64,000 nucleotides of DNA from a virus (taxonomy: Duplodnaviria; Heunggongvirae; Uroviricota; Caudoviricetes), in the IMG/VR virus record IMGVR_UViG_2537562172_000006. One strand, 5' to 3'. Shown here one piece after another: positions 53,001 through 56,000 of the stretch. Within the stretch, counting starts at the first letter, position 1, and each line of letters starts with the position of its first letter. A program made the position numbers.

Positions 53001-56000
53001 GGCATCCTTGGATCGGTGAACTTATACACGCCTCTACCCAGTCTTTTTATTGTCGCTCCAAAATCCTTTTTAATTAAGCGTCCTGTATAGTTACTCATAC
53101 TTTGGTTGTTATATCTCTCTCCAGTATCTTGATATATCTGGTTTATCCATTCTTTAACGCCAAACTCCTCATTTTTAAACTTTGACGCTGAATATAGAAT
53201 TTTTTTGTACACATCTGTTTTAGATGAACGAACAGCATCCTCATACTCTCTTCTTAGCCTACCTTCAGCATTCTCAACTGATTTTTCAATTGATTTATGG
53301 AAGATTTCAGAATTAATAACTTTGCTAGAATCAACAATGGCAGCCTCAGCAGCCTCCTTGCAAAGGAGGTGAGTAAAATATGGAAAGCCATTGCTTATAT
53401 CAACTATTTGATTTTTAATTTCATCGTCAAACCTTAGTCCTAATCCTTTTTCTCCCAGACTGATTATTTCTAACAGATGCTTTTCATCAACCCCTCCCAG
53501 ACAAACCTCATGCAGGCATCTGTTAACAGATTCATGCCCTGCCGTAAGGCTTTTACCATCCTTAGAAATTCCCACAAGCAATACTTTCAATTTCGAATTA
53601 AAATCGCTCAACTGCTTTATAAACTCTGCAACAGCTTTCTTTATATCGTCTTCTAATACATCAAACTCATCTATAACGAGAACCCCCTGAATTATTCCAA
53701 TAGTCGCTGCTGCCTTTCGAGGAGTTATTTCATCTCGTTCTATAGTTATTTTTTCTTCATAACCCACGTTACCAGTAAAGAAACTAAAAAACTTTGCAGA
53801 TAAGCCTGCCTTTATTACTTTCTCTTCCTTATACTTTTCCGGGTTTTGTGAGATAAATATTGCACATTCAGAGACGATATCTTTAAATTTAGTGTTAGTA
53901 TCACACTTCACATTAAAATACTCACCTAAAAGTACGTTGTATTGCCTGCCACCAATAACTGTAGCATTAGCTAATGAGCTCTTTCCGATTCCTCTATCAC
54001 CATATATCATACAATGCCTACCAGGAACCGTTAAATTATCTAAAATACTTCTCACCTCAGTATCTCTCCCCTTTAAATACTCAGGATTAGATATAGGAGT
54101 TGAAGGAGTATAATATTTATTCACATCATCTTTTTTTGCAAATTCTTGTGCATACTCTGCAAAAATATTCACATACACCTCCTTTTCATTAAAAATGATT
54201 AACCTGCCACTTTCTGTTTTGCAACCGTTACAAACTTCTTACGAGACTAAATATTTACGCATATCAAAGGAATGTTACGCGCGCTCATATCCATCCCACG
54301 CTATCCCATTTTACATGAACATAGGTAAAAACCCGCAACATCAGCATCAACAAAAAGCCTTACCCGTAGGCTTAATGTTTGGCTTGGCTGTAGCCTTACC
54401 GAACGCGCCGCTCACCGTCGTGGCCTGTCCGGTTTCTTCCACTGATACGGCCTCACATCATCATGCTGGTGGCGTTCCTGTTGCAGAACAACGGAAACAG
54501 GCGCTGAACACCTGTTAATTTTGCCTGCTGGTGGTCTGATTCCGGCAATGCTGCGGATCATCTCCAGCATATCGGCTTCGGTGATGGTCATGATTTACAC
54601 CTTAGGAAATCTTAGGGGGCTGGTTGACACTTTCCGGCTTAAGACCTTAATAAATCTTAATATCGCGGGTTGACACACTTGACACTTTTCGGGAAAAACC
54701 TTAACAAAACTTAACCTCCCCTGGCATTTCTAAGCATGGCAACTTGACACTTTTCGCGATTTTTTCGGCTTTTTGACGTGGTAAATCTGGCGCAAAGCCA
54801 GTAACGGCGGGGTTTACAGCGAGGTTGACACTTTTTCGCGTTCAGAGTGTAAAGTGTCAACCCGGCAGACGGCCTGACTTGACACTTTTCGCGAATTTTA
54901 CGGTCATTAATGGGATGATTTTTCCCACTCAGCCAGGGCGTTTAGTCCGGCTTCACTCCAGTTATCCAGCTCATCGGGACAATCACCTGCAACATAGCAG
55001 AGCTCACAACGCAGCATACGAATTGCCAGCCTGGCATTTTCCCGAAAATCATACTGCTCAAAGTAATATTGCCCAGCATAATCCTCAAGGCAGATAGCAC
55101 CATCATCAAGAAATTGCACTTCACAGCATAATTCCCCGGCTGCATCCTGCACACGCTGCTGTATGTCATCGTCCGTTACTGGTGCAGGGATTTTACCGTC
55201 TCTGGCCTTAACTGCTTTCCAGAACTCGCCCCACGTCATTTCCAGCGTTCTTTCTGGCCACATTTCAGAAACGGTGTCTTTCCCCTGTGCTGGTGGGCTG
55301 TTCCGCTGCTCTGTCGCCTCCACATCAATTTTTTTGCCAGACATGATCACTTCGCCTTTCTCGATCCAGTCGTAAACTGTCTGGCGGCTTACGCCTTTGT
55401 GTTTAGCATATTCTGCTTTACTCATTAGCATATTGCCCTCTCATGAAATAACGTTGTGTGCTGTCTGCCCCTGTGACTTCAGCTTGTTTTCAGCATATGC
55501 CTCGAACACCGTCACCCACGCATCACCATCGGCAGTAAGATACGCTCCGATGTGGCGAACGGACTTAACCAGAAATTTTCCGGTGAACGTGGTCGAGTTT
55601 TTGGAGATAACACTGGGCGCTGTAGTATTAGTCATGAGGATCGACGATGCTCCTGAAAACATTCCCTGAGGCAGTTCGATCACATCACTACACCGTATAT
55701 CTCCCCGCAACGGGCATTTAAAACTGACGGTAAAAGGCTTTATCCATGTTGGTTGGCCTATTAATTCATAAGGTTCAATTTTCTTTATTTTCCCCAGTTC
55801 CAGTGATGAATTATCATAAAGACGAATGCGATCTGGTAACATAATAATGCCTACCCCGCTATATCCTTTCTGACGAATAATCGCTTTCGATAAACTTCGC
55901 ACAGCCATAGCCAGCGAACCTATATCAAGGTAAACCAGTGGAATATCTTCAGGTAAAACCAGGTTATCACTGACCGAGGATTCAATAATTTTATCTGGAT

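Follow-up and report, generated by a model that had tools for sequence, protein, structure and literature searches.

The 64,000-nucleotide stretch of the IMG/VR virus record IMGVR_UViG_2537562172_000006 (Caudoviricetes) that is analyzed here, called the window throughout, contains two mobile elements: a Rac-SA53-like prophage (element 1, the helper) and element 2, which, judging from its genes, is a phage satellite of the phage-inducible chromosomal island (PICI) type. Beside the satellite gene for a 174-amino-acid (aa) protein with a winged helix-turn-helix (HTH) domain, two families of short repeats, here named A and B, are interleaved within 54594-54888. Each unit of family B copies 18-21 nucleotides (nt) of terS, the gene of the small terminase subunit (TerS). 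On balance, we consider it probable that a PICI-like satellite with a Rac-SA53-like headful helper uses this array as its packaging-initiation (pac-type) region, in which mimicry of the helper pac would be combined with sites for a packaging specifier of the satellite itself.

A unit of family B is composed of two identical CTTAnn hexamers that start 10 bp apart, with a gap of N6 from CTTA to CTTA. Four units span 54599-54737, the hexamer pairs of the first three beginning at 54601, 54646, and 54700. An earlier reading of the same DNA, the original prediction, had described three CTTA-N5-CTTA units; the three units are indeed present, while the gap has to be corrected to N6 and a fourth, degenerate unit added. 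The units, together with the original of their sequence in the helper, are the following:

54599..54616, plus strand: unit B1, ACCTTAGGAAATCTTAGG; half-sites CTTAGG/CTTAGG; matches the TerS allele LLRNPKV (phage sequence ACCTTAGGATTTCTTAGG), with 16 of 18 positions identical at the same terS position in the IMG/VR loci L068 and L084
54644..54661, plus strand: unit B2, ACCTTAATAAATCTTAAT; half-sites CTTAAT/CTTAAT; matches the TerS allele LLRNIKV
54698..54715, plus strand: unit B3, ACCTTAACAAAACTTAAC; half-sites CTTAAC/CTTAAC; matches LLRNVKV, the allele of the co-resident helper
54719..54737, plus strand: unit B4, CCCTGGCATTTCTAAGCAT, degenerate; 19 of 19 positions identical to the antisense of the terS allele MLRNARV
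23604..23623, minus strand: original of the B unit, ACCTTAACATTTCTTAACAG; inside the helper terS, codons 144-150 (LLRNVKV), in the HTH recognition helix

The helper segment is the only other occurrence of ACCTTAnn-N4-CTTAnn in the 64 kb, and about 0.008 such B-type matches would be expected in the window by chance. Its coding sense reads CTG TTA AGA AAT GTT AAG GTT, which is translated as L-L-R-N-V-K-V. Unit B3 shares with the helper terS an exact 11-nt block plus the second half-site, and the match of B4 has an E value of 3e-5 even against a tiny database. When the array is aligned locally with terS loci, every best match hits the same terS coordinates and stops within about 20 nt, so the matches are not leftovers of a larger homology. 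The identity between the B units and terS is solid.

In a survey of 80 IMG/VR relatives of the window TerS, this segment of the gene occurs as three discrete alleles, and for each of them the array holds a matching unit:

allele LLRNVKV, window plus-strand sequence ACCTTAACATTTCTTAAC: 8 of 80 TerS loci, plus the helper of the window; array unit B3 (half-sites)
allele LLRNPKV, window plus-strand sequence ACCTTAGGATTTCTTAGG: 18 of 80 TerS loci; array unit B1 (16 of 18)
allele MLRNARV, window plus-strand sequence AACCCTGGCATTTCTAAGCAT: 54 of 80 TerS loci; array unit B4 (19 of 19)

The half-sites of B2 (CTTAAT) predicted a further allele with isoleucine, and a corresponding sequence, ATTAAGAAATATTAAGGTT, was then located in a TerS gene (L269) whose product is 53% identical to the window TerS and carries the helix ASQLLRNIKV. 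An exact search for a predicted phage allele with phage-type flanks, GTATGCTTAGAAATGCTAAGGTT, gave no match; the shorter core is present in a single TerS gene and elsewhere in non-coding DNA. Changes in the satellites follow the same pattern. Among 44 satellite arrays the B2 position is occupied by CTTAAT/CTTAAT or by CTTAAC/CTTAAC, the two halves changing together (19 loci for one form versus 9+3 for the other), with no intermediates except deletion hybrids. The B4 position of the same arrays reads either CCCTGGC...CTAAGC or CCTTAGC...CTAAGC, and the second form corresponds to MLRNAKV, a sequence present in a TerS gene (L251). In other genera, the array of an Enterobacter satellite (L012) carries AACCCTGGCATTTCTAAGCAT, identical to the phage allele in 21 of 21 positions, and also AACCTTAGCATTTCTTAGCAT, which is coding sequence in TerS genes with the context YVNATRMLRNAKV. 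The B units of a Serratia satellite (L011) back-translate in the same frame to IVRNSK, IVTNSN, and MVTNGK; the Serratia and Enterobacter units share the xxRNxK frame, and the adjacent HTH protein is there only 36-63% identical. The number of B units varies from 0 to 4 through unit-to-unit deletions. In four genomes holding both a helper and a satellite, the comparison of the helper allele with the B repertoire was uninformative because most satellites carry three or four B types. One decaying satellite copy, in E. coli PCP06173 (L003), has an IS1 by the primase gene and has lost the HTH gene together with repeats A4-A6; its B1 and B2 are fused into a hybrid unit CTTAGG...CTTAAT, so unit-to-unit recombination does occur in the array.

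The terS segment itself has the properties of an element acting at the DNA level. Its two half-site hexamers lie 10 nt apart and thus in different reading frames, so that their being identical is not accounted for by a repeated peptide. When IMG/VR was scanned for TAAGAAATNNTAAGGTT, 78 matches in a TerS context were returned, and in 77 of them the choice between the synonymous leucine codons TTA and CTA agrees with the second base of codon x, 10 nt downstream. A less biased scan of the same database, in which the protein ASRLLRNxKV was fixed with lysine as AAG and valine as GTT, gave 48 distinct sequence contexts. The arginine codon is AGA or AGG in all 48 and never CGN, the leucine codon is xTA in 38, and both hexamers are identical at 6 of 6 positions in 27. 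The first base of the leucine codon is T with Val in 22 of 23 contexts and C with Ala in 12 of 13 (Fisher p = 1.3e-7). In addition, the seven-codon core is invariant within each allele class and the flanking synonymous sites vary, which fits a DNA site and is not significant alone. The simplest reading of these data is that the terS stretch would be a DNA element with two equivalent half-sites. Read as a direct repeat, nnTAAG-AAAT-nnTAAG encodes S-R-[LM]-L-R-N-x-K-V in Terminase_2-type terS genes of very diverse phage contigs (IMG/VR L130-L249 and L290-L361, and 23604-23623 in the window).

Since this element lies in terS and encodes the recognition helix (its ASRLLRN part corresponds, by alignment, to HTH helix 3 of a small terminase of solved structure), it is a natural candidate for the site that TerS recognizes, that is, for pac. 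Pac sites inside terS genes have precedents in P22, P1, and SPP1. From this precedent and the DNA-level covariation, the terS element is probably the pac of these phages, and it is a candidate for the general pac recognition site of phages with a Terminase_2 TerS. A weak preference of the SF6 TerS DNA-binding domain for [T/G][T/C][A/T]GGTT has been reported, which resembles the TAAGGTT end of the B unit (PMC4737164). A wider proposal may be put forward as a possibility that we would rate somewhat under even chances: the codons of the Terminase_2 recognition helix (S-R-L-L-R-N-x-K-V) would themselves be the DNA element bound by TerS, nnTAAG-N4-nnTAAG-GTT, and residue x would switch the specificity of the protein and its site together, giving rise to discrete alleles. 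Satellites would then carry sets of these sites of about 20 bp, one per helper allele, plus sites for a new specifier made of a winged HTH and a novel C-terminal domain.

In family A, the decamer TTGACACTTT occurs in six exact copies within 54624-54888, on the plus strand at 54624, 54679, 54744, 54825, and 54879 and on the minus strand at 54851-54860. A seventh TTGACAC, an overlap case, stands at 54670, 9 bp upstream of the 54679 copy, and two TTTACAC variants are found at 54594 (plus) and 54847 (minus). The window thus contains seven TTGACAC in 262 bp of the array versus one in the remaining 63.7 kb (at 62786). With a probability of about 2e-14 for seven or more copies within 300 bp, the array is real and far from chance. 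The original prediction of six copies, one of them inverted and paired with its neighbor, is borne out by these counts and by the A4/A5 pair listed below, as is its view that the array is not a CRISPR (clustered regularly interspaced short palindromic repeats), given spacings of 46, 9, 65, 81, and 54 bp and repeats of 7-13 nt versus a criterion of at least 23 nt. The features of this family are:

54624..54633, plus strand: repeat A1, TTGACACTTT, exact copy
54670..54688, plus strand: tandem A2′/A2, TTGACAC-AC-TTGACACTTT, 9 bp from start to start; invariant in all aligned relatives
54744..54753, plus strand: repeat A3, TTGACACTTT, exact copy
54754..54824, no strand: conserved A3-A4 spacer of 71 bp, with a hairpin CTGGCGCAAAGCCAG at 54787-54801, TTGACG at 54773, and a TTTACAG
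54823..54862, both strands: pair A4 (plus)/A5 (minus), GGTTGACACTTT/AAAGTGTCAACC; perfect 12-nt inverted arms (54823-54834 and 54851-54862) with 16 nt between them
54879..54888, plus strand: repeat A6, TTGACACTTT, 19 nt from the stop codon of the HTH gene

In every full-length relative the distance from A3 to A4 is 81 bp start to start, and the conserved spacer between them could be a region of cleavage or bending. A5 stands in tandem with the TTTACAC at 54847-54853 of the same strand. A repeats trail the homologues of the HTH gene across at least 10 species of Enterobacterales: over 15 loci from at least 10 species, the density of TTKACAY is 7.1 per kb in the 450 nt after the gene versus 0.42 per kb elsewhere. 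Since no TTGACAC was found in the helper prophage, family A is specific to the satellite. The lone TTGACACTTT outside the array, which the original prediction had placed at about 62,779, lies at 62786-62795; it is inside a small plus-strand open reading frame (ORF; 62747-62893) for a hydrophobic peptide in the early region of the satellite, is absent from close relatives, and is probably due to chance.

As the original prediction stated, the array follows directly 3′ of the HTH gene. The product of this gene would be the binder of the A repeats:

54907..55431, minus strand: 174-aa protein, proposed A-repeat binder and packaging specifier; N-terminal winged HTH (residues 1-44), disordered linker, and C-terminal alpha/beta domain

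Its HTH belongs to the class of Xis, Nu1, RppC, Cox, and BldC and resembles the domain of the lambda TerS; proteins of the fold class Xis, Cox, BldC, Nu1, and RppC typically bind arrays of direct repeats. The family is confined to the Enterobacterales, and its first 42 residues are near-invariant while the remainder diverges. Because the gene and the array co-occur, the N-terminus is near-invariant, and the fold class is of this kind, it is a well-motivated inference that the 174-aa protein would bind the A repeats. In Pfam it has only sub-threshold matches, to HTH_17 and HTH_23; among PHROG families, phrog_57 covers residues 1-42 only and there are weak matches to Cox-like excisionase/repressor families. 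The C-terminal alpha/beta domain has no clear relative. No TerS-like structural match was obtained for it, and for the whole protein phmmer against all chains of the PDB, including RppC (6HN7), gave nothing at E<=1, Foldseek against BFVD gave HTH-level matches only (E>0.1), tblastn against 50,697 phage records gave none, and BLASTP against the helper TerS detected no similarity. Two assignments of the protein were rejected: that of a TerS, as no TerS family matches over the oligomerization core, and that of a member of the Rpp proteins, as phmmer detected no homology to Rpp, no lambda-like cosN lies within 2 mismatches in or near the satellite, and the helper has a TerS of the Terminase_2 and not of the Nu1 type.

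All the genes from about 53 kb to the end of the window are on the minus strand. In element 2 they follow the order D5-type primase/helicase, ProQ/FinO, proteins of 197, 223, 111, and 345 aa, the 174-aa HTH protein, the array, a 59-aa ORF, and a STAND/AAA nucleoside triphosphatase (NTPase). The features that bear on the place of the array are:

59755-61560, minus strand: D5-type primase/helicase of element 2
59383..59754, no strand: satellite replication origin; at least nine AACTGTCTACC iterons in both orientations flanking a stretch of 26-30% GC, directly 3′ of the primase gene
58840-59382, minus strand: RNA chaperone of the ProQ/FinO family; a PerC-like gene adjoins it in relatives
52973..54591, minus strand: variable cargo slot, with the 59-aa ORF (54412-54591) and the STAND/AAA (nSTAND1) NTPase (52973-54178)

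The integrase end of element 2 lies beyond the window, and the content of a full element has been read from a relative that is 97.6% identical (L001). This element, of about 13 kb, contains an integrase, a small HTH regulator, antA, an Icd-like gene, DUF4222, the primase, ProQ, PerC, the same middle genes, the HTH gene, the array, and cargo, and it has no capsid, portal, large-terminase, or lysis genes. Such an architecture is that of Gram-negative PICI-type satellites (PMC6092414). The position of the origin, in an intergenic region of 370 bp, also agrees with that of the PICI origins described there, and with an origin at 59383-59754 the array has no such role; as an iteron origin it was rejected for its GC content of 44-47%, its lack of an AT-rich core, and its distance of 4.9 kb from the primase gene. 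Of 5,426 complete E. coli genomes, 176 (about 3%) contain the 1.1 kb around the array, always in the chromosome, and the region is unmatched by blastn in the 50,697 phage records. A previously described element, EcCIMP1 (PMC11773190), was rejected as a relative, since its packaging module differs and its annotated region shows no array of this kind. For the ProQ/FinO protein, Rfam yielded no partner RNA; on 51-64 kb at E<=1 the same database gave only sub-threshold noise, none of it in the array.

The array had also been proposed to mark the left boundary of element 2, which does not hold. Cargo genes follow it, and the chromosomal genes to the left of the satellite are ttcA, dbpA, zntB, a diguanylate cyclase, and smrA (51573-52136). 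As smrA is the first chromosomal gene, the satellite ends between 52137 and about 52970 and the array is not its boundary; it is at least 1.6 kb from the element end, and the cargo in between, of about 0.5-4 kb, is non-homologous among relatives. These relatives differ in the middle module (L002, L004-L006), in the replicase (of the DUF927 type in L004), or in the cargo, and they keep the HTH gene (85% protein identity) and the array. The cargo consists of defense-type genes (L001 15347-15892; L004 6703-8659; L005 5597-7195; L006 5385-8483), in these relatives sieB, AAA + DUF4435 (PARIS-like), GapS1, or methyltransferase + DUF262 + HEPN. Sequence conservation ends in the left part of the array, so the array separates the conserved backbone from a slot of variable cargo. 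In the PICIs of E. coli, cos is found at this position, with the last packaging gene on one side and the cargo on the other. In Klebsiella pneumoniae (CP052167; L010) and Serratia marcescens (L011), relatives of the satellite lie directly upstream of prophage neck, sheath, and tube genes, embedded in the helper, and their middle modules hold other tail genes (Dit-like, spike/Apex, and tail-fiber assembly); in the Klebsiella element, a DUF5681 gene starts 164 nt past the HTH gene.

Element 1 (about 1-46128) is integrated at the Rac site, its integrase (44893-46128) adjoining ttcA; it is only about 6 kb from the satellite, which makes the two near neighbors on the chromosome. The helper terminase comprises a 363-aa Terminase_2 TerS (Pfam PF03592; 22961-24052, minus strand) and a T4-type large subunit (TerL), the combination found in headful (pac) phages, and its genes indicate a headful mechanism of packaging for element 1. 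Four satellite proteins are related to helper proteins, which gives indirect evidence for induction and transfer of the satellite by a helper phage. A homologue of the 430-aa DUF2213 head protease/scaffold that element 1 encodes (18136-19428) is split in the satellite into the proteins of 223 and 197 aa, with 54-59% identity, while those of 111 and 345 aa are 72-74% identical to the products of two tail genes of element 1 (7602-8950). Presumably, the middle module with these proteins disturbs or reshapes the assembly of the helper. The helper counterparts of the 111-aa and 345-aa proteins lie in the tail/baseplate region, after the tape-measure gene; the diverged helper-gene copies occupy 55441-58150, and tail-gene homologues are unusual for a PICI-type satellite.

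Put together, these data suggest how the array might function. After induction, the satellite would replicate from its own origin and the array would then serve as the start of packaging. The B units would act as mimics of the terS element of about 20 bp (coding sense nnTAAG-AAAT-nnTAAG-GTT) and be recognized by the helper TerS. In phages this element exists as discrete alleles (V, P, I, A-R, and A-K), and the satellite carries counterparts of several of them side by side, so that it might be picked up by several helper variants. The A repeats would be bound as direct repeats by the adjacent 174-aa protein, whose C-terminal domain would favor the assembly of the helper terminase on satellite DNA, or exclude the helper, in a manner like that of Rpp or GpsA/B. 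The direction of packaging would be the one in which the B units read as sense, which in the helper leads from terS to terL and in the satellite into the cargo slot and on to the end of the element. In the Staphylococcus aureus pathogenicity islands (SaPIs), accessory and defense genes are reported to lie between pac and the element end, which allows their shuffling by lateral transduction (PMC12829572), and the layout is the same here.

Several observations weigh against this picture. Units B1-B3 agree with the phage half-sites and differ in the 4-nt spacer (AAAT/AAAA versus ATTT). The module of A array and HTH gene is common to satellites with different hijacking modules, which would not be expected if the protein must contact the terminase of one helper. 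Beyond the HTH, this protein has nothing detectable in common with TerS, Rpp, or phage proteins, so that its position is what ties it to a terminase. Moreover, 4 of the 15 relatives show no enrichment of TTKACAY; two of these are truncated or frameshifted, and the remaining ones may use variant motifs. The covariation counts in terS are de-duplicated by context and ignore phylogeny, and the isolated TerS DNA-binding domain of SPP1/SF6 has almost no sequence specificity (PMC4737164). Finally, the IMG/VR contigs with the array are mostly provirus calls from isolate genomes, which makes their ends uninformative on packaged termini.

Other roles have to be weighed against the same evidence, some of them raised already in the original prediction, which had listed a packaging site bound by a Nu1-like HTH protein, integrase/excisionase arm sites, and a regulatory operator array. 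Of these, a packaging site is favored, by way of the terS mimicry; the 174-aa protein is not detectably a terminase subunit, and no lambda-like cosN accompanies the array. A search for the lambda cosN (GGGCGGCGACCT, up to 2 mismatches) and one for the 19-nt cos of P2/P4 (up to 3 mismatches) found none in or near the satellite. A purely regulatory array, in which the 174-aa protein would repress or activate transcription from TTGACAC (cargo read-through or an antisense transcript) and have no part in packaging, is unlikely in our opinion. It would agree with a fold class that includes regulators of the Cox, BldC, and MerR types, with the weak PHROG matches to Cox-like families, with the location of the array between the end of an operon and the cargo genes, and with the fact that TTGACA is the -35 hexamer of sigma-70. 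However, none of the TTGACA copies of the array has a usable sigma-70 -10, only one of the seven TTGACAC copies does not point away from the genes on either side, and the allele-specific 20-nt copies of terS in the second repeat family would be left unexplained. A search for intrinsic terminators gave none in the array. The terS mimicry would apply equally to a pure decoy, whose B units titrate the helper TerS while satellite packaging starts elsewhere, and interference with helper packaging is a common strategy among satellites (PMC6739421; PMC11417361). Nevertheless, the searches of the satellite yielded no further candidate for a pac or cos, and a satellite with functional TerS sites would itself be packaged, which makes the two roles hard to separate; as the whole explanation, a decoy appears to us rather improbable.

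The three other explanations are of still lower probability. If the array were debris, that is, remnants of past terS recombination and repeats born by slippage, the variation of the B units from 0 to 4 by unit-to-unit deletion would be natural, but different alleles of one 20-nt segment would not be expected side by side with no flanking homology, nor an arrangement kept across genera in which the adjacent protein is only 36-63% identical, nor B2 halves that change in concert; we regard this as very improbable. Arm-type sites for the excision of the satellite by an excisionase or integrase are in keeping with the HTH_17/Xis-like fold and with direct repeats plus one inverted copy, reminiscent of Cox/Xis arrays. 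The distance of at least 1.6 kb from the element end, with variable and non-homologous cargo between, makes excision sites implausible at this place, and the link between B units and terS would again go unexplained, so that they deserve slightly less credit than debris. The ori and crr of P4 are octamer arrays, and the copy number and irregular spacing of the repeats resemble them. Yet the satellite has a textbook PICI origin directly 3′ of the primase with different iterons (AACTGTCTACC), the array shows no AT-rich core, and the relative with a DUF927-type replicase (L004) keeps the same array; an origin or an accessory iteron set for the D5-type primase/helicase is, of all these explanations, the hardest to believe.

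The packaging reading of the array, which we favor, has several parallels among known systems. In the Rpp/cosB system of the E. coli PICIs (EcCICFT073; Fillol-Salom 2019, PMC6739421; Murialdo and Feiss 2022, PMC9026076), also of the Gram-negative PICI type, a Nu1-like winged-HTH gene lies by the packaging site, this site is placed between the packaging genes and the cargo, and helper-derived and satellite-specific parts are combined. The differences are that here there is no lambda-type cosQ/cosN, that a headful phage with a Terminase_2 TerS serves as helper, that neither RppC nor the lambda TerS resembles the 174-aa protein in sequence and the latter has another C-terminal domain, and that an array of 7-9 repeats takes the place of a single proposed R3-like site. 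The logic is that of this system, and it is even closer to that of the Vibrio phage-inducible chromosomal island-like element (PLE), which carries a short copy of the helper pac (14 bp of the ICP1 pac) and its own packaging-directing factors, GpsA and GpsB (Boyd and Seed 2024, PMC11417361). The host, helper, and proteins of PLE are unrelated to those described here, where several allelic mimics are arrayed, their source is in the recognition-helix codons of TerS, and the system is known from sequence alone. The TerS of SPP1/SF6 is of the same family, PF03592, and its pac (pacL-pacC-pacR, with direct repeats of boxes a, b, and c) overlaps the 5′ part of terS and contains phased direct repeats, and the weak preference reported for the DNA-binding domain, xxAGGTT, resembles the TAAGGTT end of the B unit (PMC4737164); in contrast, the SPP1 boxes are not reported at the recognition-helix codons, the isolated SF6 domain was nearly non-specific, and the element proposed here derives from sequence comparison. 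The SaPIs either encode their own TerS with its own pac or, as SaPIbov5, carry the helper cos, and they too have an own specificity subunit or a copy of a helper site, with cargo between pac and the end (PMC12829572); here the 174-aa protein is no recognizable TerS homologue, and both strategies are seemingly combined in one array. The winged-HTH proteins Cox, Xis, and BldC likewise bind arrays of direct repeats, but they are of 55-90 aa and act in excision or transcription, while the 174-aa protein carries an additional domain of some 110 aa and its proposed sites lie a long way from att.

Compared with the published literature searched, two features appear new: several allelic mimics arrayed together, and the origin of the mimicked element in the codons for the TerS recognition helix, whose half-sites show covariation in a very broad set of phages. 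The way in which headful phages recognize their own DNA is poorly defined. In this sense, an array that isolates a piece of terS of about 20 bp, in several alleles and free of coding constraint, points to the nucleotides that matter. If the proposal is true, it provides a candidate minimal and portable pac element for a very widespread TerS family in which sequence-specific recognition has proved difficult to show, and a self-referential coupling of a recognition helix with its own site; it would also explain how one satellite backbone uses several helper variants. The 174-aa protein would then represent a new family of packaging specifiers in satellites of the Enterobacterales, with a defense cargo directly downstream, where it would be shuffled by lateral transduction. 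From a practical point of view, such elements could make plasmids or engineered islands transducible by chosen phages.

Sequences of this type are also found beyond satellites with the array. The unit GAACCTTAGCATTTCTAAGCAT occurs in AT-rich non-coding DNA of six IMG/VR records (L250, L252, L255-L257, and L259), unrelated-looking elements without TTGACAC repeats, and other mobile elements may use the same mimicry of terS. One of these records, L256, carries a second unit, GTTAACAAATGTTAAGGTT, near its GAACCTTAGCATTTCTAAGCAT.

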